Positions 2,860 to 61,246 of a DNA stretch of 64,000 bases are shown here, one piece after another. Numbering within the stretch: the first letter of the stretch is position 1; each line of letters opens with the position of its first letter. Location of the stretch: NCBI RefSeq assembly GCF_988242995.1, contig NZ_OZ547043.1; one strand, 5' to 3'. The notes below the pieces were generated by a model. It was not told where the DNA came from. It worked only from the letters and a program-made list of their open reading frames with translations, and did no database searches. The position numbers and the translations under genes were made by a program.

Positions 2860-3167
2860 TCTTTGTTCTCTCTGTAGTAACGTGTCAGTTTGTCATACTC
2901 GGCGTGATTAGTTATGTGCTTCACAAAGAACCGCTTATTAACAAAGTTTATGTAGGCAATAACCCTAAGATTGTTCCCGCCGACATCCAGAACGTACCAT
3001 TTATTGCGATATTTAAAATTGTCGAGGTTGGGAAACGCCGTTCGCATTTCTTCTGGCGTAGAAAAATCCGTTTCCTTAATAACCCGATACAATGAGTGTA
3101 GAGCCAGAGCGTCGTTAGGATATTTGCGCGCACACTCTTCAAATGGCGCTTTCGAAATGATGTGCAT
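2856..3167 (-). CDS. HigB-like toxin (RelE/ParE superfamily mRNA interferase)
   Basis: 103-aa ORF; translation MHIISKAPFEECARKYP...FPNLDNFKY...VGGNNLRV resembles E. coli HigB/YgjN; toxin-first order with 4-bp overlap to antitoxin is typical of higBA. Confidence 0.75.
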   Translation of the reverse strand: MHIISKAPFEECARKYPNDALALHSLYRVIKETDFSTPEEMRTAFPNLDNFKYRNKWYVLDVGGNNLRVIAYINFVNKRFFVKHITNHAEYDKLTRYYRENKE

Positions 3168-3804: not shown

Positions 3805-4207
3805 GCAATCTCCTCACCATCAAATAGATGGCGTTTTCCTGATGAATATCATGCAGCATACTTAACAGCATTGTACTCCATTCCTTCTGCTGCGAAGTTT
3901 GCGCTGCCCGGGCTTTATCGAATGCGTTGGCCAGCATCGGCACATGGTTAATGTCGATGACGATCTCACCATATTTCGGCACGCCTTCCATTTTGCGGCG
4001 GGCTTCGCTGCCCGCCTCCAGAGTGGCAATCCATGCCAGATATTCATCCCACGGACAGGTGAGCGCCGCTTCCAGGCAATCGATAACCCCAAGGTGGTGA
4101 CCAATCGCCAGGCTGTAATAGACCACCTGCTGCGCCTCGGCGGGCGTGGCATCGTTCTCATCAATAAATTTACGGCTCAGTTGACTGAACACCACCTTTT
4201 CACTCAT
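3797..4207 (-). CDS. hycH: Formate hydrogenlyase maturation protein
   Basis: 136-aa ORF matching HycH; 8-bp overlap with hycI. Confidence 0.93.
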
Positions 4208-4971
4208 CGGATACGCGCCTCTTCAACAACATGATTCAGATGGCTGACAATCTCGTTCAGACGCGGATCGTTTTCCGCTTCCAGCCAGCGTGCAACCTGT
4301 TCTTCGCCCTGCCCTAACTGTGTCAGGAAGTCATCGGCAATCTGACGACCGTAACGATAACCTGCCAGGCGGCGTGCTTCGCGATCCACTTTCACGCGCA
4401 GCGGCTGCACCATATCGCCATGCAGGATCTCCGCCGGTTGTTCATCCTGCTCACCCGGCCCACGGGCGTGAATTTTCTGCTCCAGCAGGCCGAGCGCCAT
4501 TGCAAAGCCGTATAGCGTAGCGGCAGGCGTTGGCGGGCAGCCAGGGATGTAGACATCTACCGGGACGATTTTATCCGTACCGCCCCACACGCAGTAGAGA
4601 TCGTGGAAGATCCCGCCACTGTTACCGCAGGCACCGTAGGAGATACAGATTTTCGGGTCCGGCGCGGACTGCCACGCACGCAGCGCAGGGGATCGCATTG
4701 CACGGGTGACCGCGCCGGTAAACAGTAAAATATCCGCATGACGCGGTGAAGGAACGACTTTAATGCCGAAGCGTTCTGCATCAAACAGCGGCGAAAGCGT
4801 GGCGAAAATTTCGATTTCGCAGCCGTTGCAGCCGCCGCAGTCCACGCGGTAAACGTAGGCAGAACGTTTGATTTTTTTCAGTAACGACGCCTTCATGCTG
4901 GCGATGGATTCATCCACCGTCATCGGGACCGGAATGCCGTTGGCGTCACGGGGGCCTAATAAATTGCTCAT
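4204..4971 (-). CDS. hycG: Hydrogenase 3 small subunit (NuoB-like)
   Basis: 255-aa ORF; Fe-S cysteine motifs; synteny. Confidence 0.93.
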
Positions 4972-5522: not shown

Positions 5523-7232
5523 TTATTTCAGCGGCGAGTTTTTACGCTCAATGCTGTAACGCTCGAGTTCTTTGTACGGCACCACTTTGCTCTTCTTCTT
5601 ACGCACATCGACCACGGTCATGCGGTCGGTACAGGAGTAGCAAGGGTCCAGGCTACCGATAATCAGCGGCGCATCGGAAACGGTGTTGCCGCGCAGCATG
5701 TAGCGCAGGGTCGGCCAGTTCGCGTAGGTCGCCGCACGGCAGCGCCAGCGGTACAGCTTCTGGTTGTCGCCGGTCATGCTCCAGTGGATATCGTCGCCGC
5801 GCGGCGCTTCGGCAAAGCCCAGCGCGAAACGGTGCGGAATGTAGGTAAAGCCTTCCACCATCAGCGGGCCGCCCGGCAAGTTATCCAGACCGTAATCGAT
5901 CATATTCAGCGCGGTATAGACTTCGTTGATACGCACTTTCAGACGGGAAATAACGTCGCAGCCCTGCTCGCTGTGGACTTCCATTGGCAGCAGGCCATAA
6001 CCAACAAACGGGTGATCGGCACGGGTATCACGGGCGTGACCGCTGGCACGGACCATCGGGCCAACGTTACTGAAGTCGCGAGCGATTTCCGGATCCAGAC
6101 GACCAATGCCGACGGTGCGCTGTTCCATGTTCGGTGTGCTCAGCAGCACATCCACCAGCTCCTGCACTTCACGACGCATCTGCTGTGCCAGTTGACGGGT
6201 CTGGATCATGTCATCTTTCAGCAGATCGCGACGAATCCCGCCGATCAGGTTCAGGCCGTAGGTTTTACGTGCACCGGTAAGGATCTCTGCCATTTTCATG
6301 GAGGTTTCACGCACGCGGAAGAACTGCATAAAGCCGGAGTCGAAGCCGGTAAAGTGACAGGCGAGGCCGAGGTTGAGCAGATGCGAGTGCAGGCGTTCTA
6401 CCTCCAGCAGAATGGCGCGGATCATCTGCGCACGTTCTGGCACCTGAATACCCATCGCGTTTTCCACCGACGTGGTGTAGGCGGTGCTGTGAGCAAAGCC
6501 GCAGATCCCGCACACACGGTCAGAGAGGAAGGTCACTTCGTTGTAACCCATGCGGGTTTCCGCCAGTTTTTCCATGCCGCGATGGACATAGAACAGGCGG
6601 TAGTCGGCGTCGATAATGTTTTCGCCATCGACGAACAGACGGAAGTGACCCGGTTCGTCGGAAGTGACGTGCAGCGGACCAATCGGCACGACGTTGTTTT
6701 TCTTGTCGCCCAGTTCGTTGATGAACTCGTAGGTTTCAGCATCGGTAGTCGGTGCCGGACGTTGACGATAATCCATGCTGTCTTTACGCAGCGGATAAAG
6801 TTCATCCGGCCAGTCATCCGGCAGCACCAGACGACGTTCATCCGGCAGACCAACCGGAATCAAACCGTACATATCGCGCACTTCGCGCTCGCCCCACACC
6901 GCCGCCGGAACGCGCGGCGTCACGGACGGATACTCCGGTTTGTTGGCGTCAACTTCGACGCGAACCGTAATCCAACACTTAGTGCCCTTCTCCATCGACA
7001 GCACGTAGTAAACGGCGTAATGACCATTCAGTTTGCGTTCGTCGTTGCCAAACAGCACCGACAGCCAGCCACCCTGTTTGTAGTAAAGAAACTCCACTAC
7101 TTCCGGCAGATAGTTCACCTTTACGGTGACAGTCAGCTGATCTTTGGTCTGCCAGGCGTGGTCCAGCACGACGCCCGGAAATGCCTCATTCAGCGCGGCG
7201 AGATAATGTTGACCTAATTTTTCTTCAGACAT
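5523..7232 (-). CDS. hycE: Hydrogenase 3 large subunit (NiFe)
   Basis: ORF 5523..7253; start taken at MSEEKLGQHY (569 aa) matching HycE; NiFe large-subunit C-terminal DPCxxC motif. Confidence 0.93.
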   Translation of the reverse strand: MSEEKLGQHYLAALNEAFPGVVLDHAWQTKDQLTVTVKVNYLPEVVEFLYYKQGGWLSVLFGNDERKLNGHYAVYYVLSMEKGTKCWITVRVEVDANKPEYPSVTPRVPAAVWGEREVRDMYGLIPVGLPDERRLVLPDDWPDELYPLRKDSMDYRQRPAPTTDAETYEFINELGDKKNNVVPIGPLHVTSDEPGHFRLFVDGENIIDADYRLFYVHRGMEKLAETRMGYNEVTFLSDRVCGICGFAHSTAYTTSVENAMGIQVPERAQMIRAILLEVERLHSHLLNLGLACHFTGFDSGFMQFFRVRETSMKMAEILTGARKTYGLNLIGGIRRDLLKDDMIQTRQLAQQMRREVQELVDVLLSTPNMEQRTVGIGRLDPEIARDFSNVGPMVRASGHARDTRADHPFVGYGLLPMEVHSEQGCDVISRLKVRINEVYTALNMIDYGLDNLPGGPLMVEGFTYIPHRFALGFAEAPRGDDIHWSMTGDNQKLYRWRCRAATYANWPTLRYMLRGNTVSDAPLIIGSLDPCYSCTDRMTVVDVRKKKSKVVPYKELERYSIERKNSPLK

Positions 7233-41731: not shown

Positions 41732-41812
41732 TGGGTTTGAAAATGAGAGCTGGGAGTTCTACCGCAGGGGCGGGGAATTCTAAGTGATATCCATCATCGC
41801 ATCCAGTGCGTC

Positions 41813-43000
41813 CGGTTTATCCCCGCTGACGCGGGGAACACGCTTTTCCCCACGCGTCCAGATCTTCGACTGGCGGTTTATCCCCGCTGGCGCGGGGAAC
41901 ACTCATTAAATTGTTTTTCCCGATCCCAGCTCTGCGGTTTATCCCCGCTGGCGCGGGGAACACCTGGAGCGCAGAAAGTTTGATATCGAAAATGCCGGTT
42001 TATCCCCGCTGGCGCGGGGAACACAGTTAACAACCCGCGCCGAACAAGCCCGACAACGGTTTATCCCCGCTGGCGCGGGGAACACCAGGTTCGTAAAGGT
42101 GAACACGGCACGACGGCCGGTTTATCCCCGCTGGCGCGGGGAACACGCGTCGCCATTCTATTAGCTTTTCCTCATCACCGGTTTATCCCCGCTGGCGCGG
42201 GGAACACCCGACAATCTCCGCCTCCAGTCGGTCGACCTGCGGTTTATCCCCGCTGGCGCGGGGAACACTGTGCCCGACTGCGTGCCGCGTCGAGCGCCTG
42301 CGGTTTATCCCCGCTGGCGCGGGGAACACTTCGCCGCCATCATCCTGTGGTGCCAGTTGACCGGTTTATCCCCGCTGGCGCGGGGAACACATACCGCAGC
42401 AAATTACGGTTCCAGAAACGCGCGGTTTATCCCCGCTGGCGCGGGGAACACTGACACGTTAAACGGTGCGTTGTCGTCGCTGTCGGTTTATCCCCGCTGG
42501 CGCGGGGAACACCCTGCCGCCCCCTTTAGCCCATATGGGGGCGGCGGTTTATCCCCGCTGGCGCGGGGAACACTTCAACATTACGAAACGGGATCACGCC
42601 GCTGACGGTTTATCCCCGCTGGCGCGGGGAACACCGGCTCCGCGTCGACATAAAAGTCCTCGGGATCGGTTTATCCCCGCTGGCGCGGGGAACACATATT
42701 TCGCCCCGTCACGCTGAATCAGCCAGCCGGTTTATCCCCGCTGGCGCGGGGAACACTCGCTTTTAAAGCGCCGGAGGAAAGTAAGCTCCGGTTTATCCCC
42801 GCTGGCGCGGGGAACACTAGCATAAATTACCCGATCAGATCGCGGACATCGGTTTATCCCCGCTGGCGCGGGGAACACTCGATCAAAAATTTACAACCAA
42901 AGGCTTCAACCGGTTTATCCCCGCTGGCGCGGGGAACACTCCCCGGTATCAGAAATAATTCCCTGCTCGATCGGTTTATCCCCGCTGGCGCGGGGAACAC
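41813..43000 (-). CRISPR. Type I-E CRISPR array: 20 repeats of 29 bp, 19 spacers of 32 bp, period 61 bp; transcribed from the cas2-proximal leader
   Basis: Repeat CGGTTTATCCCCGCTGGCGCGGGGAACAC at 41813, 41874, ... 42972; leader-distal repeat is degenerate (CTGACG instead of CTGGCG). Confidence 0.98.
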
Positions 43001-43096
43001 ACTAAGCATACATAACTGTTTTTAAACAAATTTATTCCGCATCAACAATCTACCAACTAAATTAAAACATTTCCTTATTTTTAAAGAACAGATAAC
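43001..43096 (-). promoter_or_regulatory. CRISPR leader (AT-rich, between cas2 and first repeat)
   Basis: AT-rich 96-bp spacer between cas2 stop and leader-proximal repeat. Confidence 0.8.
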
Positions 43097-48958: not shown

Positions 48959-51658
48959 TCAACCAACCTTGCCAGTCAATCCTTCCATAGCCGAATACCC
49001 GCAACTTTCGTCATCGGTAACTAAAATCACGTTTGCCATCTCCGGATCTTTCCGCTGTTCAATGCACCACTGCCTGAACGCTTCCCCTTCCAGTAAAGAA
49101 AACTCATCCCGATGTTTTTTCCACCAGCTTCGACGCACTCTGACAACGCTCATTTCCCATGCGTGAGCACCGTTGGCATAAGGCTTCACCACACTGGCAA
49201 TACAGGTAGCCAGCCACAGGGAAACAGACTCCTCCGCCAGACGTGTCGACAGCTTTTCCGGAAGGTAATCGTTGATATTGGCGGCATAGCCAGGCCTGAA
49301 GTTCAGCACAAACTTTTTAGCCATTGCGCGATCGCAGTAATATTTGCCCACTTGCTCCTGCTCGCTGCGGGCAAATCCTTCCGGCATTACCACGTCCTCA
49401 CCGTAGACTGATTCAATAAGAAGGCGGGCTGCGTGTGGCATTTGAATAGCGCCTTGCTCACGCAGTACACGCTGCGTCAGCCAGATTCGTCCATGATCGG
49501 GATAGACATATGCACTGTTACGCATGGCACTGCCGAACCATTCGTCACCTGGAGCGTCGTCCCAGACGGGGGCCAGAATCAGCAATTCAGGAGGGGAACG
49601 CTCGTCTTTTCCGTCACGCTTTAACTGACCATTAATATCGCGGATATGCCGCTGTAATCGCCCCGCTCGCTGGATCAGCAAATCAACAGGGGCCAGGTCG
49701 GAAATCATTTCGTCCATATCGCAATCAACGCTCGACTCTAAGACCTGAGTACAAATGAGGACTTTTCCGGCACGCTGTGAGCTATCTTCTTTACCGAAGC
49801 GTGCCAGCGTTTCCGTTTCAATTCGCTGGCGATCGCTAAAAGCAAAGCGGCTATGAAACAGAGAAAGGCTGGAAGCAGGAATGACGCCGCGGGCAAGCAA
49901 CTGACGATAAACCTTAATAGCGTCATCGACAGAATTCCGGATCCAGGCGATGCATTTCCCCTGACTTACTGCCGATTCGATACGCGCAATACATTCTTGT
50001 TCGCTATGAAGCCAACCCACGCTCACGCTACGCTCAACGTCTTTGCGCGTCGCTACCCGGTGTGAATGCACATCGGATTTCGTAACGTGCGTCAGCCAGG
50101 GGTAATCATCCTTTTCCAGGAACGGAGCTTCTTGCTGGCCCTCTGTACCACGCGCAAAGGCAGCAACGAGTTTGTCGCACTGCTGTTGAGATAACGTGGC
50201 AGAAAGCAAAATGACGCTGTTTCCGCCACGCGCCTGCCGCTCGATCAGCCCTTCAAGAATGCATGACATGTAAGCGTCACAGGCATGGATCTCATCAGCC
50301 AGCAGGATTTTGTTACTCAGTCCCAGAAGCCGCAGATTATTATGTTTGAACGGCATCACAGCCATCATCGCCTGATCCAGCGTGCCGACGCCAATTTCAG
50401 CCAGTAGCGCCTTCTTGTTACTGTCGGCAAACCAGGCCGCACATCCCTGACTGAACGTTTGTTCATCCGGTTCTTCTGACCCGACTAAATCACCGGACCA
50501 GAGTGATTCATTAAAGCGGTCCATTAATGTTCGGGCACTGTGTGCCAGCACCAGGCTGGGGCGGGACTCTGGCGAATAGAAAGCAAGCCAGGTTTTGACC
50601 AGTCGATCGTACATGGCATTGGCCGTTGCCATTGTTGGCAGGCCAAAAAACAAACCCTGCGCTTTACCCGCAGCCATCAACCTGTGCGCCAGGATAAGCG
50701 CCGCTTCCGTTTTACCTGCGCCAGTCACATCTTCCAGAATAAATAACTGTGGCCCTGGCTGGCTGATATCCAGATCCAGCACCTTTTGCTGTAACGGTGT
50801 CGGATTCTCAATAAAAGGAAACAGCGTATTAATTCCGGTGAAAGGCGCGACTTTTGCTTTTAGAGGAAAGACGGTTAAGGCGTTTTGAGCCTGAACTAAA
50901 GTTTTCTGCCAGTAACCTTTATTATCCATTGGGTGTGCGACGCGTGGAAAAAATCGCGTTGACGAACCCGTCCAGTCTGCGAGCACGACGGTTGCAGAGA
51001 TATACCAGGAAAGGTGTTTTATAAGTTCAATGCCCTCATCATCATCCCAGAATGCGGGGATCTCTATGAGCGGAAACAGTGGTTTGATTTCAAGAAGAAA
51101 ATCTCGCGCGGCAGCTTTGTCTTCAGGCAGAAAATTATCCAGTTCATCAATACGGTCAGGCGGGCGACCATGATGCCCGGTAGTTATGGGCATCCACATC
51201 GCTATTACACGTGTAAGTTTGCGGGGAGAGAGTGAAGAGGAAGGAAGTAACTCCTGACATTCACTTAAATAATGATGCCACAACCAGTAGCCCAGCGTTG
51301 AATGAGAGATTTTTTCGTAATTTTTTCTAGCACCTTCCGGAACCCTGAGTTTCGGGTGCAGGTAAAGTTGCTGAAATGAGCGGGCAAATTTACCAGTATC
51401 GTGCCAGCACAACAACCAGGCGAAAAATTGAGCCGCCTGTTCCTTGTCAGAAATCTCTAATTGACGAAAATAGTCAGCCAGTCCGAAGCAATTGCTTTTA
51501 ACCATTAAATAGCCCATCGCGGCTACATCCAGCGAATGCCAGCAAAGAAGGTGATAGTCGTCGCCCCCGTCTTTCTCGCCGCGTCGGGTTTTTCCCCAGA
51601 AATCAAAAAAAGTCACAATATTTTTATCCTTCAGTAAACTTAAAGGATATTTACGCAT
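48959..51658 (-). CDS. cas3: Cas3 nuclease/helicase (HD domain + SF2 helicase)
   Basis: 899-aa ORF; N-terminal HD region (HSLDVA, WHDTGK), helicase motifs GAGKTEAA and DEIH. Confidence 0.93.
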   Translation of the reverse strand: MRKYPLSLLKDKNIVTFFDFWGKTRRGEKDGGDDYHLLCWHSLDVAAMGYLMVKSNCFGLADYFRQLEISDKEQAAQFFAWLLCWHDTGKFARSFQQLYLHPKLRVPEGARKNYEKISHSTLGYWLWHHYLSECQELLPSSSLSPRKLTRVIAMWMPITTGHHGRPPDRIDELDNFLPEDKAAARDFLLEIKPLFPLIEIPAFWDDDEGIELIKHLSWYISATVVLADWTGSSTRFFPRVAHPMDNKGYWQKTLVQAQNALTVFPLKAKVAPFTGINTLFPFIENPTPLQQKVLDLDISQPGPQLFILEDVTGAGKTEAALILAHRLMAAGKAQGLFFGLPTMATANAMYDRLVKTWLAFYSPESRPSLVLAHSARTLMDRFNESLWSGDLVGSEEPDEQTFSQGCAAWFADSNKKALLAEIGVGTLDQAMMAVMPFKHNNLRLLGLSNKILLADEIHACDAYMSCILEGLIERQARGGNSVILLSATLSQQQCDKLVAAFARGTEGQQEAPFLEKDDYPWLTHVTKSDVHSHRVATRKDVERSVSVGWLHSEQECIARIESAVSQGKCIAWIRNSVDDAIKVYRQLLARGVIPASSLSLFHSRFAFSDRQRIETETLARFGKEDSSQRAGKVLICTQVLESSVDCDMDEMISDLAPVDLLIQRAGRLQRHIRDINGQLKRDGKDERSPPELLILAPVWDDAPGDEWFGSAMRNSAYVYPDHGRIWLTQRVLREQGAIQMPHAARLLIESVYGEDVVMPEGFARSEQEQVGKYYCDRAMAKKFVLNFRPGYAANINDYLPEKLSTRLAEESVSLWLATCIASVVKPYANGAHAWEMSVVRVRRSWWKKHRDEFSLLEGEAFRQWCIEQRKDPEMANVILVTDDESCGYSAMEGLTGKVG

Positions 51659-51852: not shown

Positions 51853-52005
51853 CTACTTCTTCGATTCGTAAGCGAGAACTGCCTTAAACTCCATACCACG
51901 TTCTCTGATACTCAACTCACACAACGAGTCGCCTACCATCAGCGTGAATCCCAGTACTGTACAACACAGTACGATGATTGCCACAAGGGCATATTTTGTC
52001 AGCAT
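51853..52005 (-). CDS. Hok/Gef-family type I toxin (small membrane peptide, HokE-like)
   Basis: 50-codon ORF absent from ORF track: [50 protein letters not shown]; GGGAGG RBS; TM helix plus conserved Cys; resembles Hok peptides from memory. Confidence 0.65.
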
Positions 52006-52270
52006 GTCTTGCCTCCCTGCAAAGAAGAGACTAACATTCGAATTGCTTAGGTTCGAACGCTGGCCTCAGGTTGATAGAAATATCGCCTGGGGCTTTTGTC
52101 CATCTGGAACCTCGCGAATGCTTAACGCCAGACAGCCTCAAGCACCCAACGCCATTCTATACTTGATAATTCTTCCAGCGGCGTTCACGTTTAAAATCAG
52201 GAATGCTGCTCGCAAAATAAAAACGCCCCCATCTTTTCAGACAGAGACGTTTATTAAGCGGTACGATATT

Positions 52271-53005
52271 TTACCCTTCGTGCAGCCCACATTCCCTTTT
52301 TAAGCCAAAGAAACGCGTTTCTTCTTCCGCCATGCCGGGTTCCCATTTACGGGTTGTATGGGTATCACCGACGGATAAATATCCTTCGTCCCATAATGGA
52401 TGATATTTCAGGCCATGTTTTTGCAGATACTGATATATCGTTCGGTTATCCCAGTCGATAATCGGCAGCACTTTAAATACGCCACGCTGAATTGCCAGCA
52501 CCGGTAAATTGGCGCGACTGCCGGATTGTTCGCGGCGCAGGCCAGCAAACCACGTTTGCGCATTCAGTTCTTTCAGCGCCCGGTTCATCGGTTCGACTTT
52601 GTTGATGTCATTGTACTTTTCAATGCCTTCAACACCCTGCTCCCACAGTTTGCCGTAGCGCGCTTCCTGCCAGGCGGCGCTTTCGGTAGCGCGGTACACT
52701 TTCAGGTTGAGCTTGAGTTTGTCCGTTAACTCGTCAATAAAGCGGTAGGTTTCCGGGAACAGATAACCCGTATCGGTCAGGATCACCGGGATATCCGGGT
52801 GAATCTGATTCACCAGATGCAGGCTCACCGCCGCCTGAATGCCGAAACTGGAAGAAAGTACATATTCACCGGGCAGATTATCCAGCGCCCAGGCAACGCG
52901 GCCTTCAGCATCCAGTTTTTCCAGTTCGGCGTTAGTTTCTGCCAGCGCCAGAATGCGATCTACCTTCGGCAGTTCGTTCAGGGCGTTTAGATCGAGTTTG
53001 GACAT
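52271..53005 (-). CDS. cysH: Phosphoadenosine phosphosulfate (PAPS) reductase
   Basis: ORF 52271..53158; start taken at [14 protein letters not shown] (244 aa); C-terminal ECGLH motif. Confidence 0.95.
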
Positions 53006-53026
53006 AGATTCCTCACTGTTTGCCTT

Positions 53027-53062
53027 GCCTGATGCGACGCTCACGCGTCTTATCAGGCCTAC
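53027..53062. repeat. REP (repetitive extragenic palindromic) element between cysI and cysH
   Basis: GCCTGATGCGACGCTCACGCGTCTTATCAGGCCTAC matches the E. coli REP consensus family. Confidence 0.75.
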
Positions 53063-53078
53063 AAGACCGGGCTGATGG

Positions 53079-54791
53079 TTAATCCCACAAATCGCGCGCC
53101 GGATCGAGCACCGGGCGAATGATGCCCGCACGCACCGTAAAGTCGCCGAAGCCTTCACCCGCTTCGCGCTCTTTCGCCCAGCGCCCTATCAGTTCATCAA
53201 GCGACGCCAGGATTTCCGGCTCGGTGATGTTTTCTTTATACATCCGTGGGATACGTGTCCCAATGCGGTTGCCGCCAAGATGCAGGTTGTAGCGACCCGG
53301 CGCTTTACCCACCAGGCCCACTTCCGCCAGCATCGCGCGACCACAACCGTTCGGGCAGCCTGTTACACGCATCACGATATGCTCATCGCTGACACCATGT
53401 TTCGCCATTAAATTATCGATGTTGTCGATAAAAGACGGCAGGAAACGCTCGGCTTCGGCCATCGCCAGCGGGCAAGTCGGGAATGACACGCAGGCCATTG
53501 AGTTTTCACGCTGCGGCGTGACGGCATTCATTAACCCGCTCTCTTTGGCGATCTTCTCGATCTTCGCTTTCTCGCTTTCCGGCACACCGGCGATGATCAG
53601 ATTCTGGTTCGCCGTAATGCGGAAATCACCTTTGTGGATCTTCGCGATCTCCAGCAGGCCAGTTTTCAGCGGACGCCCCGGATAATCAAGGATGCGACCA
53701 TTTTCGATAAACAGCGTCAGGTGCCAGTTATCATCAATGCCCTTAACCCAACCAATACGATCGCCGCGTCCGGTAAACTCATACGGACGGATCGGTTCAA
53801 ATTTGATCCCCGCGCGACGCTCCACTTCCGCTTTAAACGTCTCAACCCCCACGCGCTCCAGCGTGTATTTGGTTTTGGCATTTTTACGATCGGTACGGTT
53901 ACCCCAGTCGCGCTGAGTCGTCACGACGGCTTCTGCCACCGCCAGCGTATGCTCCAGCGGCAGATAACCAAACTCACTCGCCGTGCGGGCGTAGGTTTTC
54001 TTGTTGCCGTGCTCGATGGAAAGCCCACCGCCCACCAGCAGGTTAAAGCCCACCAGCTTGCCGTTTTCGGCGATCGCCACGAAGTTCATGTCGTTGGCGT
54101 GCAGATCGATATCGTTCTGCGGCGGGATCACTACCGTGGTTTTGAATTTACGCGGCAAATAAGTCTGACCGAGGATCGGTTCTTCATCGGTGGTGGCGAC
54201 TTTTTCCTGATCGAGCCAGATCTCCGCATACGCGCGGGTACGCGGCAGCAGATGTTCAGATATTTTCTTCGCCCATTCATAGGATTCCGCGTGCAGCTGC
54301 GACTCGTAAGGGTTCGAGGTACAGAGTACGTTACGGTTCATGTCGTTGGCGGTAGCCAGCGCATCAAGACCGACTGAGTGCAGCATCTGGTGCACCGGTT
54401 TGACGTTCTTTTTCAGAATGCCATGGAACTGGAACGTCTGGCGGTTGGTCAGGCGAATGCTGCCATAAATGGTGTTTTCACCGGCAAATTTATCGATCGC
54501 CTGCCACTGTTTGGTGGTAATCACCCCACCCGGCAGACGACAGCGCAACAGCATTGCATGACGTGGCTCCAGCTTCTGTTCAGCACGTTCAGCGCGGATG
54601 TCGCGGTCATCCTGCTGATACATGCCGTGGAAGCGGATCAGCAGGAAGTTGTCGCCCTTAAAACCACCGGTCAGACCGTCGTTTAAATCTTCCGCAATGG
54701 TGCCGCGCAGGTAGTTGCTTTCAAGCTTCATGCGCTCGGCGTCTGTCAGTTTTCCTTCGACCACTAAAGGCCCTGGATGTTTTTCGCTCAT
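53079..54791 (-). CDS. cysI: Sulfite reductase (NADPH) hemoprotein beta subunit
   Basis: 570-aa ORF; siroheme/Fe-S cysteine cluster region; synteny. Confidence 0.95.
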
Positions 54792-56590
54792 TAGTAGACA
54801 TCTCGCTGATAACGGCGCTCTACGCGCAGCTCACTTAAAAATTCATCCGCCGCTTCGGTGTCCATGCCACCAAATTCGGCAATCACTTCCAGAAGTGCCT
54901 GCTCAACGTCTTTCGCCATGCGATTAGCGTCGCCGCAGACATAAATGTGGGCACCGTCATTGATCCAGCGCCACAGCTCCGCGCCCTGTTCGCGCAGTTT
55001 GTCTTGTACATAAACTTTTTCTTTTTGGTCGCGCGACCAGGCAAGATCGATGCGGCTCAATACGCCTTCTTTCACGTAGCGCTGCCACTCCACCTGGTAG
55101 AGGAAATCTTCCGTAAAGTGTGGGTTGCCAAAGAATAGCCAGTTTTTACCCGGCGCTTCGTCGGCAGCACGCTGCTGCATAAAGGCACGGAACGGCGCGA
55201 TGCCGGTGCCAGGGCCAATCATGATCACCGGGGTTTCCGGGTTAGCGGGCAGGCGGAAGTTGTCGTTATGTTCGATAAAGACGCGGACTTCACCCTCTTC
55301 TTCCACACGATCCGCGAGGAAGCTGGAGGCACCACCGGCACGGGCGCGGCCTTCCACGTCGTAACGCACCACACCAACGGTAACGTGCACTTCGTTCTCG
55401 ACTTCCGCCTGCGAGGAGGCGATGGAATACAGGCGCGGGGTCAGCGGGCGCAACAGATTAATCAGCGCTTCGGCATCCAGTTGCGCCGGAGAGAAACGCA
55501 CCATGTCGACAATCGGCGTGGTCGCGGCGTAATGCTGTAACTTCGCTTTATCGCCCACCAGCGGCAGCAGCGTTTCGCTGCGGGTAAGCGTGGCATAGTT
55601 CTCAACAATGTTGGCGGTGTTGACGGTCAGTTCGAAGTGCCACTGTAGCGCTTCGTTCAGCGGCAGGGTTTTGCCGTCAACGGTGACAGTTTCATCGCCT
55701 TTCAGCCACAGCAGTTCGACAAGTTCTTTCACCAGTGCCGGATCGTTCTGATACCAGACGCCCAGCGCGTCACCCGGCTGGTAACGCAGGCCCGAGTCAC
55801 CTAAGTCAATTTCGATATGGCGAACGTCTTTTTCAGAGTTACGCCCGGTAATTTTCTGGTTAACAGAGAGGCTCGCCACCAGCGGCGCGTCTTTGCTGTA
55901 CGGGCTGGTGTGGATTTCATTTACCGCGCCAGTAGCGACGGATTGCGAAGGTGCCGCGACAGGCGCACGCGATTTAAGCGCATCAACCACGCGGGCGCGC
56001 CACTCGCTGGCAGCGGCCTGATATTCAACATCGGCATCGACACGGTCGAGCAGGCGTTCACCGCCCAGTTCCGCCAGCTTACTGTCAAAATCTTTCCCGG
56101 ACTGGCAGAAAAATTCATAAGAGCTATCGCCGAGGCTAAACACGGCAAACGCGGTGTTTTCCAGCTTTGGCGCTTTTTTGGAGAACAGGAACTTATGCAG
56201 CGCGACGGCTTCTTCCGGCGGTTCCCCTTCCCCTTGCGTTGACGTCACCACGATGAGCAGTTTTTCGCTGGCGATTTGTTTGAATTTATAGTCGCCCGCG
56301 TTCACCAGCTTAACGTTCAGTTTTGCCGCTAATAAATCATCGCGTAATGCTTCAGCAACCCGGCGCGCATTGCCGGTTTGCGAAGCGGAGATAATAGTTA
56401 TACCCGGCATTTCTGCGGCGGGCGCTGGCGTCGCTGCAAGCGCAGCAGGCTGCTGGTTGAGCACGCCCCAGAAATAGCCAGAAACCCAGGCAAGCTGGGT
56501 GGGAGTTAAATCGGTCGTGGCCGCCTGAAGGCGTGCCAGTTGCTCCGGGTTCAACGGAAGCAACGCGGAAGGTGGGACCTGTGTCGTCAT
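54791..56590 (-). CDS. cysJ: Sulfite reductase (NADPH) flavoprotein alpha subunit
   Basis: 599-aa ORF with flavodoxin-like and FAD/NADPH-binding regions. Confidence 0.95.
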
Positions 56591-58887: not shown

Positions 58888-59463
58888 ATGCCCCTCTTAC
58901 ACCTGCTCCGCCAGAATCCGGTGATTGCTGCCGTTAAAGATAATGCCAGCCTGCAACTGGCAATCGACTCTGAATGCCAGTTTATTTCCGTGTTGTACGG
59001 CAATATCTGCACCATTAGTCAAATCGTTAAAAAGATTAAAAATGCCGGAAAATATGCTTTTATTCATGTTGATTTGCTGGAAGGCGCGTCAAATAAAGAA
59101 GTGGTGATTCAGTTTTTGAAACTGGTGACTGAGGCGGACGGCATTATCAGTACCAAAGCCTCAATGTTGAAAGCGGCAAGAGCGGAAGGTTTTTTCTGTA
59201 TTCATCGCCTGTTTATTGTTGATTCAATTTCGTTTCACAACATTGATAAGCAAGTTGCGCAATCGAATCCGGATTGTATTGAGATCCTGCCAGGCTGTAT
59301 GCCTAAAGTGCTGGGCTGGGTGACGGAGAAAATCCGCCAACCGCTGATTGCCGGCGGGCTGGTGTGCGATGAAGAAGATGCGCGTAATGCGATTAACGCA
59401 GGTGTCGTGGCGCTTTCCACCACAAATACCGGGGTCTGGACGCTAGCGAAAAAATTGCTTTGA
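58888..59463 (+). CDS. ygcP: GlpP-like glycerol-3-phosphate-responsive antiterminator family protein
   Basis: 191-aa ORF; synteny. Confidence 0.82.
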   Translation: MPLLHLLRQNPVIAAVKDNASLQLAIDSECQFISVLYGNICTISQIVKKIKNAGKYAFIHVDLLEGASNKEVVIQFLKLVTEADGIISTKASMLKAARAEGFFCIHRLFIVDSISFHNIDKQVAQSNPDCIEILPGCMPKVLGWVTEKIRQPLIAGGLVCDEEDARNAINAGVVALSTTNTGVWTLAKKLL

Positions 59464-59487: not shown

Positions 59488-59565
59488 TTGTGTGATTTGT
59501 AGGCTGCACGCCACATCCGACATTCAGCGCCTGATGCGACGCTTGACGCGTCTTATCAGGCTTAC
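59488..59565. repeat. REP/BIME element between ygcP and ygcQ
   Basis: GCCTGATGCGACGCTTGACGCGTCTTATCAGGCTTAC at 59529-59565, preceded by a partial inverted REP-like unit. Confidence 0.65.
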
Positions 59566-59609: not shown

Positions 59610-60470
59610 TTATTGGCAATCTGCGTGAATGGTTGTCACCAGTGCCTCCAGCACCGCTTTCCAGTCATCAACCACGCCAACATCTGCCTGTGAAAATACC
59701 GCTGCACTGGCGTCATGATTAATCGCCACCACAAACTTGCTATTGCGTACGCCCGCCATTAACGCTGCTGCGCCGGAAGCGCCAACGACAATACACACCT
59801 CAGGTGCCAGCAGATGTCCAGAAATACCAATCACTTTTTCGGCATCAACGCCACCATTCATCACTCGTGCCCGACTGTAGCCCACTTCGGCTCCCAGCTT
59901 TTCTGCCAGCATAGCGATTTCCTGGTTATCTGCCTCTCCGCCCTGCCCCACCACCAGCACCCGTCTGGCCTCAGCTAATGGGTCACGGGTAACATTTTTC
60001 AGATCCTCTGTGCTAACCAGCCAGTCGGGAAGCGCGCCGGGGACAATGTTCAGTTGCTGCATACCAGAGGGCAATGTGGCGTTTTTCACTGCTCCCGCCT
60101 GGCGGGCAAGGGAAAGGCATAGCGGGCGTTTTTCTGTTTGCAGCGTCGCCGTTAGCGCATTTCCCCAGTGGGATTTGCGCACGCTTACGGTTGAAATATC
60201 TAACGAAGTCACCTGGCAGATGCTTGCACCATGTAAACGCCAGGCCAGCCGGGTCGACAGTTCATCACCAAACGTTCCCGGCGGAAAGAGAACAACGTCC
60301 GCTGGCGTTCGCTGCCACTGTTCCACCAGCGCATCCAGCACCTGTTCCGCCACTACGGGCTGAGGTTCAATCTGCCAGTGTGCCAGGGTACAACCGCTGA
60401 AATCCTGTTCTGCCAGCCAGCTCGCTATTGCGGCATTCTCCTGATTTATTGTCACAATTGCGATATTCAT
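59610..60470 (-). CDS. ygcQ: Electron transfer flavoprotein alpha subunit (FixB-like)
   Basis: ORF 59610..60503; start taken at MNIAIVTINQ (286 aa). Confidence 0.87.
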   Translation of the reverse strand: MNIAIVTINQENAAIASWLAEQDFSGCTLAHWQIEPQPVVAEQVLDALVEQWQRTPADVVLFPPGTFGDELSTRLAWRLHGASICQVTSLDISTVSVRKSHWGNALTATLQTEKRPLCLSLARQAGAVKNATLPSGMQQLNIVPGALPDWLVSTEDLKNVTRDPLAEARRVLVVGQGGEADNQEIAMLAEKLGAEVGYSRARVMNGGVDAEKVIGISGHLLAPEVCIVVGASGAAALMAGVRNSKFVVAINHDASAAVFSQADVGVVDDWKAVLEALVTTIHADCQ

Positions 60471-61246
60471 GGCTGCATCCTTTGGCGTAAATAGTCCTGC
60501 CATAGCTTTTGCGCTTTTTCTGCTACCGTTTGCCCATCAATCAGCGTCGCTCCGCGTTGTTGCTCTGCTCTTGCCAGTTGCAGACACTGCATCGCTGGCG
60601 ATTCGGCAGCAACAGTTTTACGGATAATTGCTGCTTTCCCCGCCGCCATTCGCTGACGCATTCCCGGTACTGGCAAGGCCACTTCACCGCACTGACGCAC
60701 GGCAATCACCGCAGGCAAGCGAACCCGGCAACAGCGCAGCCCGTTTTCAGTACGCTGTTCGAGGGTGATAAACAGCGCGTCGAGAGTGAAACGCTCCACC
60801 TGGGTGAAGCAGGGCCAGCCCAGCATTTCCGCCAGCAAAAATGGCGTTTGCCCATTCTGCCCTTCGCTGCTTTGGCAGCCGGTAATTATCAGATCCAGCG
60901 GATTCTGACGCTGCCATTCGGCAATATGGCGAGCGACAAATTCCGGCGCAAAGCGCAGATCTGCCGCCGTCTCCAGTAATACAGCTTCCTCAAACCCAAG
61001 AGCCATGAGATAGCGCAGCCAGTGCAACGCCCGTTCATCCCCCATGCTCAACGCGGTTAAAGACATCGACGTACCGTTTTTTCTCTGCGTCAACAGCAGC
61101 GCGGCGGCAGCCTGTTCATCAGCACCGAGTAAACTTCGCAGAAGCGAAACATCCGGTCCGCTATTACCCTGAGCCGCCGCCTGCCACTCTTTTTCCGCCA
61201 GCATTCCGGCATCCGGTTCGGCTTTAAACGCTAACAGAATGTTCAT
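60467..61246 (-). CDS. ygcR: Electron transfer flavoprotein beta subunit (FixA-like)
   Basis: ORF 60467..61252; start at MNILLAFKAEPD (259 aa); 4-bp overlap with ygcQ. Confidence 0.87.
   Translation of the reverse strand: MNILLAFKAEPDAGMLAEKEWQAAAQGNSGPDVSLLRSLLGADEQAAAALLLTQRKNGTSMSLTALSMGDERALHWLRYLMALGFEEAVLLETAADLRFAPEFVARHIAEWQRQNPLDLIITGCQSSEGQNGQTPFLLAEMLGWPCFTQVERFTLDALFITLEQRTENGLRCCRVRLPAVIAVRQCGEVALPVPGMRQRMAAGKAAIIRKTVAAESPAMQCLQLARAEQQRGATLIDGQTVAEKAQKLWQDYLRQRMQP

Follow-up and report, generated by a model that had tools for sequence, protein, structure and literature searches.

The spacer between cysI and cysH in the 64-kb window studied here (the whole stretch of DNA that was analysed, 64,000 nt of E. 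coli chromosome) carries a single REP. We are practically certain that this element is an ordinary Z2-type member of the E. coli REP/BIME family, and it is thus already known in kind and shows no departure from known REP behaviour. Judged from its surroundings, the REP is predicted to be transcribed within the cysJIH polycistronic message, where its hairpin may act as a local stabiliser or attenuator, and at the DNA level it would offer a landing pad to insertion sequences. Taken as a whole, we regard this statement as rather probable. For one of its parts, a measurable regulatory effect of the REP on cysJIH, which is proposed by analogy with other operons, we consider the chances to be evenly balanced. 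REPs are the best-known and commonest small palindromic repeats of E. coli, and both sites described below matter little in themselves. The cysI-cysH copy is of interest as a natural target of IS621, and hence of a bridge recombinase, inside an amino-acid biosynthesis operon, and because the spacers at this junction form a natural series for the effects of REPs within operons.

A Z2-type REP in the cysI-cysH spacer

The genes in the window were assigned from the annotation of homologous RefSeq records. The features of the cysJIH operon, in the order of transcription, are the following:

54791..56590, minus strand: cysJ, with which the operon opens and whose end overlaps the start of cysI (ORF list, homologous RefSeq annotation)
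53079..54791, minus strand: cysI (sulfite reductase hemoprotein), upstream cistron (ORF list, RefSeq annotation of homologous records)
53006..53078, minus strand: cysI-cysH intercistronic spacer, 73 nt (sequence and ORF list)
53027..53062, minus strand: Z2-type REP, a palindromic unit (sequence, pattern match, comparison with the published Z2, blastn-short, hairpin)
52271..53005, minus strand: cysH (PAPS reductase), downstream cistron (ORF list, RefSeq annotation of homologous records)
52221..52252, minus strand: terminator-like hairpin and T-run just past the cysH stop, the likely operon end (terminator scan)

An earlier note on this DNA had placed a canonical REP in a 73-nt spacer between cysI and cysH, and both the element and the length of the spacer are confirmed. 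Read on the plus strand, the REP is 36 nt long and has the sequence GCCTGATGCGACGCTCACGCGTCTTATCAGGCCTAC, while the minus strand, which is that of the mRNA, reads GTAG + GCCTGAT AA GACGC GUGA GCGUC GC AUCAGGC. The element is extragenic, lying wholly inside the spacer that runs from the cysI stop to the cysH start, and the GTAG tetranucleotide 5' of the palindrome (53062–53059, minus strand) is intact. A pattern describing the Z2 type matched at exactly 53027–53062 with 0 mismatches and gave 0 matches in 100 shuffles. As Z2 reference we used GCCTGATGCGACGCTGGCGCGTCTTATCAGGCCTACG, one of three REP queries that Durrant et al. 2024 published in their methods section (PMC11208160). Compared with the published Z2 consensus GCCTGATGCGACGCTGGCGCGTCTTATCAGGCCTAC, the cysI-cysH REP agrees at 34 of 36 positions and differs at two, both of them in the loop; it is this comparison that the earlier note had named beforehand as the one on which its claim should stand or fall. 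When the three published REP queries were searched by blastn-short against the 64-kb window, the cysI-cysH REP was found with E = 2e-11, and the sole other significant match lay at 59529–59561 (E = 3.5e-7). The remaining matches are chance words of 9–19 nt, so that by this search the window holds two REP copies.

The REP folds as ....(((((((..(((((....)))))..))))))), i.e. GTAG and then a 7-bp outer stem, which a mismatch with AA opposite GC separates from an inner stem of 5 bp that closes a 4-nt loop. For the mRNA strand the hairpin has a predicted stability of -20.5 kcal/mol (z -5.4), and for the opposite strand one of -21.4 kcal/mol (z -6.8); its stems were identical in all sequence contexts that were folded.

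REP/BIME repeats are non-autonomous and are spread by the REP-associated transposase TnpAREP/RAYT. With both GTAG and stem intact, the cysI-cysH REP is, as far as its sequence goes, a plausible substrate of this enzyme. The anatomy of the y, z1 and z2 REPs of E. coli has been described, the z2 units being 37 nt long, preceded by GTAG and marked by an AA-GC bulge (PMC8266576). The cysI-cysH REP resembles the Z2 type in its GTAG, its AA/GC bulge, its length of ~37 nt, its extragenic location and its high copy number, given that a 43-nt query centred on it was found at no fewer than 40 places per genome (at least 40) in 5425 of 5426 complete E. coli genomes. We see no essential difference from the type: the element occurs singly and not as part of a BIME, and it departs from the consensus at the two loop bases. 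The K-12 copy, at about 2888334–2888370 of that genome, carries an additional T in its stem. A BIME layout, in which a REP is joined by an inverted REP, is absent from the cysI-cysH spacer of the window, where the REP stands single.

At the gathering threshold, a search of the whole window against Rfam returned no match to a REP family, its only match being sok at 51990–52147, and the RefSeq annotation of NC_000913.3 has no repeat feature at either the cysI-cysH or the ygcP/ygcQ site. A literature search for cysI or cysH together with REP found nothing relevant, and the supplements of a recent REP preprint (bioRxiv 10.64898/2026.03.23.713779) and of the IS621 paper (PMC11208160) make no mention of cysI or cysH. 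Going by the numbering of the elements around it, with REP199 near rpoS and REP201 at ygcP/ygcQ, the cysI-cysH REP is presumably REP200.

Position of the REP within the cysJIH transcript

In the sense of the mRNA, the spacer consists of the cysI stop codon UAA, 16 nt, the 36-nt REP, and 21 nt that include the GAGGA Shine-Dalgarno sequence and lead to the AUG of cysH. Downstream of the hairpin the mRNA strand continues with AAGGCAAACAGUGAGG (AAGGCAAACAG), which is no U-run, and a T-run 3' of the hairpin is found on neither strand. Furthermore, a consensus scan of 53006–53078 revealed no terminator-like and no promoter-like site. Since the spacer has neither a T-tract nor a promoter-like site, the REP is expected to be transcribed inside the cysJIH polycistronic mRNA, as the earlier note had assumed in treating the three genes as a single transcription unit. 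Altogether, the sequence argues that the REP is co-transcribed within the cysJIH message with its GTAG on the sense strand.

A second REP between ygcP and ygcQ

The second significant match lies between the convergent genes ygcP and ygcQ, where we distinguish the following features:

58888..59463, plus strand: ygcP
59499..59522, plus strand: inverted Y-type REP remnant, 24 nt, with ~11 nt deleted internally and no hairpin (K-12 comparison, fold)
59529..59565, minus strand: second Z2-type REP, full 37 nt (blastn-short, fold)
59610..60503, minus strand: ygcQ

The layout is that of an inverted Y unit, a 6-nt linker and a Z2 unit, the Y unit being ~11 nt short. The Z2 REP at 59529–59565 forms a predicted hairpin of -21.7 kcal/mol (z -7.7). 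The Y remnant at 59499–59522 reads GTAGGCTGCACGCCACATCCGACA, and the stretch 59488–59520 that holds it folds no better than shuffled sequence (z +0.39); its ~11-nt deletion is common to the window and K-12. The earlier note had spoken here of a REP pair or BIME. This description suits the layout, which holds one intact Z2 REP and has an existing annotation as REP201, and it does not suit the present state of the partner, which is a truncated remnant of a Y unit that does not fold.

In K-12, positions 2894809–2894875 are listed as REP201, 'Convergent', ygcP/ygcQ (supplement of bioRxiv 10.64898/2026.03.23.713779). The window stretch 59499–59565 is the orthologue of this element, the whole 67 bp of which is annotated as one, and the ygcP/ygcQ element is thus already known. 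The window copy differs from K-12 REP201 by two C-to-T changes; through one of them GTAG has become GTAA, so that the tetranucleotide of this Z2 REP departs from the type. Any mutation of GTAG abolishes both binding and cleavage by TnpAREP (PMC8266576), and on sequence grounds the ygcP/ygcQ REP should have lost recognition by TnpAREP. A 201-nt query covering the ygcP/ygcQ region is present over at least 80% of its length in 4801 of 5426 genomes.

Insertion sequences at the two REPs in other strains

IS621 belongs to the IS110 family and is moved by a bridge-RNA recombinase; IS1397 targets REP sequences. The cysI-cysH REP contains a site for the former:

53052..53062, plus strand: natural target motif of IS621, ATCAGGCCTAC, inside the cysI-cysH REP (motif published in PMC11208160)

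Neither element is present in the window itself, and insertions are found in other strains' copies of both REPs. In strain 7.1994/NIST0056, IS621 has inserted at the cysI-cysH REP in the arrangement ..ATCAGGCCT/IS..CT/AC.., where slashes mark the junctions. Written out further, these read ...CTTATCAGGCCT/IS...TATCT/ACAAGACC, to be compared with the published target ATCAGGCCTAC and its CT core. The inserted copy (4330–4560 and 5600–5660 of the fetched locus) has a frameshifted transposase and splits the cysJIH operon. In strain 631, the loop of the ygcP/ygcQ REP is interrupted by an element of the IS3 family, at the equivalent of window position ~59545, with TTGA duplicated on both sides (3090–3110 and 4535–4545 of the fetched locus); it looks like IS1397.

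Variation of the cysI-cysH spacer within E. coli

Comparison of the spacer across strains, which the earlier note had proposed as a check, shows that the cysI-cysH REP is near-fixed in E. coli. A 106-nt query spanning the junction is covered over at least 80% of its length at one place in 5419 of the 5426 complete genomes, and megablast with the same query returns 5297 of 5426. A neutral sequence that lies in a core-genome spacer would, however, be expected in any case to come close to fixation within one species.

Four E. coli genomes, of which strain N96 represents the type, have a 136-nt cysI-cysH spacer in which a Z1 and an inverted Y REP replace the single Z2 (positions 4017–4152 of the fetched locus in N96). 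The same layout also occurs in a record labelled Pseudocitrobacter vendiensis, the CysH of which is 98% identical to that of E. coli; this suggests transfer or mislabelling.

Among the REP haplotypes sampled, we found the extra T in the stem that is seen in K-12, a change of GTAG to GTTG in strain FEA3, and three substitutions within the inner stem. The latter (equivalent to window 53035–53050) are all C-to-T on the mRNA strand, where G.U pairs are kept: the sense hairpin of the substituted REP retains -14.9 kcal/mol, compared with -9.4 kcal/mol for the antisense, in which the inner stem is lost. REPs are DNA palindromes under concerted evolution, and compensatory change across species would not separate a function of the RNA from constraint at the DNA level. 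With three events (p ~0.125), the strand asymmetry of these modelled stem substitutions is a weak hint of constraint acting on the RNA.

Comparison across enterobacterial species

We took the cysI-cysH spacers of 80 enterobacterial species from their cysH loci and sorted them by content:

32 of 80 species: E. coli-type Y, Z1 or Z2 REPs, one to three units
16 of 80 species: other GTAG-tagged hairpins (Klebsiella/Enterobacter-type REPs)
21 of 80 species: other or degenerate palindromes, including the CCCTCTCCC...GGGAGAGGG repeat
11 of 80 species: repeat-free spacer, nine of 15 nt (CCACGAGAGGTAATT-like) and two of 33–35 nt

The natural series referred to above thus begins with repeat-free spacers of 15 nt, as in Enterobacter, continues with spacers that hold one REP, and extends to those with three REPs, 173 nt long in one case, or with unrelated palindromes; some relatives within Escherichia have two to three REP units. 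Among the 32 species with E. coli-type REPs, 29 have the cysH-adjoining unit oriented with GTAG on the mRNA strand. Where the unit adjoining cysH is of the Z1 or Klebsiella type, its core ends ~21–22 nt before the ATG, as it does in E. coli, and in ~53 of the 69 spacers that bear hairpins the hairpin nearest to cysH ends 13–24 nt before the cysH ATG. This pattern fits both an old insertion whose sequence each host has since replaced with its own REP type and a single permissive slot between the cysI stop and the ribosome-binding region of cysH. The unrelated palindromes found at this place in other species are as compatible with such a slot as with a function. Repeat-free spacers in related species show that the cysJIH operon needs no hairpin. 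The spacers of Kluyvera, some Enterobacter, Pseudocitrobacter and Escherichia sp. E1V33 hold a different GC-rich palindromic repeat, CCCTCACCCTAACCCTCTCCCC...GGGGAGAGGGCCGGGGTGAGGGG.

A possible effect on cysJIH expression and its alternatives

We propose that the REP hairpin would work as a local element resembling a 3'-UTR for cysJI, by analogy with the REPs of malE-malF and yjdM-yjdN (REP325). It may block 3'-to-5' exonucleases, or act as a weak and partly Rho-dependent attenuator, or both, with the outcome that cysJI message would exceed cysH message; whatever effect it has on cysJIH would probably be modest, and one that the operon can do without. As DNA, the REP would in addition serve as a landing pad for REP-targeting insertion sequences.

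REP hairpins are known to resist 3' exonucleases, and some act as partial Rho-dependent attenuators (PMC6061677). The remark in the earlier note that REPs can stabilise upstream mRNA and modulate downstream expression likewise generalises from REPs elsewhere. In yjdMN, REP325 both attenuates and stabilises, and across 146 REP-containing tandem gene pairs the median log2 ratio of upstream to downstream expression is 0.96, compared with -0.09 in controls, the ratio rising with more canonical REPs; the effects in that study varied widely, and half-lives were not generally affected (bioRxiv 10.64898/2026.03.23.713779). Because the cysI-cysH REP is canonical and tandem pairs with REPs are biased to the upstream gene, the REP may by analogy favour cysJI over cysH. 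Like REP325, it lies between co-oriented genes of one operon and lacks a U-tract. REP325, however, comprises 12 alternating Z2 and Y units and its effect has been shown by experiment, whereas the cysI-cysH REP is one unit to which a role is assigned by analogy. The likeness to the malE-malF stabiliser (Newbury et al. 1987, cited in PMC6061677) lies in an intercistronic hairpin within a polycistronic mRNA. As with malE-malF, the cysI-cysH REP would be expected to protect the upstream segment of the message from 3' exonucleases, yet no REP-defined 3' end has been reported for cysI. In the Term-seq list for M63 medium (Adams et al. 2021, PMC7815308), a 3' end is placed at K-12 position 2888409 on the minus strand, corresponding to window ~53101, which is inside cysI, 22 nt before the stop and 39 nt upstream of the REP, and which may stem from processing, pausing or Rho; the same list, which is curated and thresholded, holds no RNA 3' end at the base of the REP. 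A decay product stabilised by the REP would end at that base, and the pattern of ends weighs against a strong effect. The classic malE-malF REP is reportedly a multi-unit element.

The foremost alternative takes the REP for a neutral relic of selfish DNA without measurable effect on cysJIH expression, which has settled in the only insertion-tolerant stretch of the spacer, between the cysI stop and the ~20-nt ribosome-binding region of cysH. We consider this quite possible, for the relic as for the tolerant stretch, while short of probable. It accords well with the 15-nt repeat-free spacers of nine related species, with the Klebsiella-type REPs, Y+Z1 BIMEs or unrelated CCCTCTCCC/GGGAGAGGG palindromes that other species hold at the same place, and with the different BIME in four E. 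coli genomes. The Term-seq list, having no REP-defined 3' end, points the same way, and in silico deletion of the REP leaves the accessibility of the Shine-Dalgarno sequence as before. A neutral relic does not account as readily for the genome-wide bias of REP-containing tandem pairs to upstream expression, which is stronger for canonical REPs, nor for an orientation and a distance to cysH that are kept across genera, nor for haplotype substitutions that keep the sense-strand hairpin.

At the other extreme, the hairpin next to cysH could be a selected RNA element that sets the CysJI:CysH ratio, and not a tolerated parasite. The place of the hairpin, whose core ends ~21 nt before the cysH ATG, and its orientation would then have been kept from E. 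coli to Salmonella, Citrobacter, Kluyvera and Klebsiella while the REP type of each host overwrote the sequence; the substitutions within E. coli, by which pairing is kept on the mRNA strand alone, would belong to the same picture. We find both the selected role and this history doubtful.

Liang, Rudd and Deutscher are said to have proposed in 2015 that a REP near a stop codon stalls ribosomes, the REP having to lie within ~15 nt of the stop. Applied to the present operon, the REP would lower CysI synthesis by stalling terminating ribosomes. The REP lies close to the cysI stop, its GTAG starting 17 nt past it, and an extended stem could start 12 nt past it; the core stem, however, starts only 21 nt downstream of the stop, and the extended stem is weak and context-dependent. 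We consider this mechanism very unlikely.

An equally slight chance attaches to a role mainly at the level of the DNA, with the REP either bound by gyrase, IHF, Pol I or HU or organising the chromosome. REP/BIMEs are reported to bind Pol I, gyrase and IHF (PMC1525189), but the cysI-cysH REP is a lone palindromic unit without the second REP or linker found in BIMEs, and even for the 12-unit REP325 a recent study found no role in the nucleoid or in long-range contacts (bioRxiv 10.64898/2026.03.23.713779).

The REP might also clamp CCAUCA, just past the cysI stop, onto UGAGG of the cysH Shine-Dalgarno sequence, and would thereby couple the translation of cysH to ribosomes that terminate at cysI. 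When the 73-nt spacer is folded by itself, nucleotides 1–6 indeed pair with the Shine-Dalgarno sequence in the minimum-energy structure, with a pairing probability of 0.92–0.98. This outer helix is gone once 30–100 nt of flanking mRNA are included, and the pairing of the Shine-Dalgarno sequence is about the same with or without the REP. We rejected the clamp, which appears only in the fold of the isolated spacer, vanishes with flanks and is insensitive to in silico REP deletion, and we hold it to be most improbable.

Finally, there is next to no chance that the REP, for all that it forms a strong GC-rich hairpin between two cistrons, is an intrinsic terminator that splits cysJI from a separately transcribed cysH, as the hairpin is followed by AAGGCAAACAGUGAGG and no U-run, and the consensus scan, on which we rejected both an intrinsic terminator and an internal promoter, found no site of either kind in 53006–53078.

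Genomic context of the window

The window is a segment of the E. coli chromosome with the hyp genes, mutS, rpoS, cysDNC, iap, a CRISPR array, type I-E cas genes, hok/sok, cysHIJ, queD and ygc genes. The CRISPR array (41792–43001) has 20 repeats of CGGTTTATCCCCGCTGGCGCGGGGAACAC with a period of 61 nt. By comparison with the homologous strain EcPF15, a type I-E cas operon follows the array on the minus strand, and it ends with an 899-aa cas3 ORF at 48959–51658. Between cas3 and cysH lies a locus of the hok/sok toxin-antitoxin type (51853–52147, minus strand); the Rfam match to sok at 51990–52147 scores 111.7 bits, and a Hok-like ORF of 50 aa is intact at 51853–52005.

The ancestry of the region from rpoS to cysH appears, from its sequence matches, to be mosaic. 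For the 22 kb from rpoS to cas3 (window 30000–52000), the best matches among the 5426 complete genomes reach ~97.4–97.8%. The 701 bp around the REP (52700–53400) are 100% identical to strain 2012C-4221, which is without cas genes between iap and cysH.
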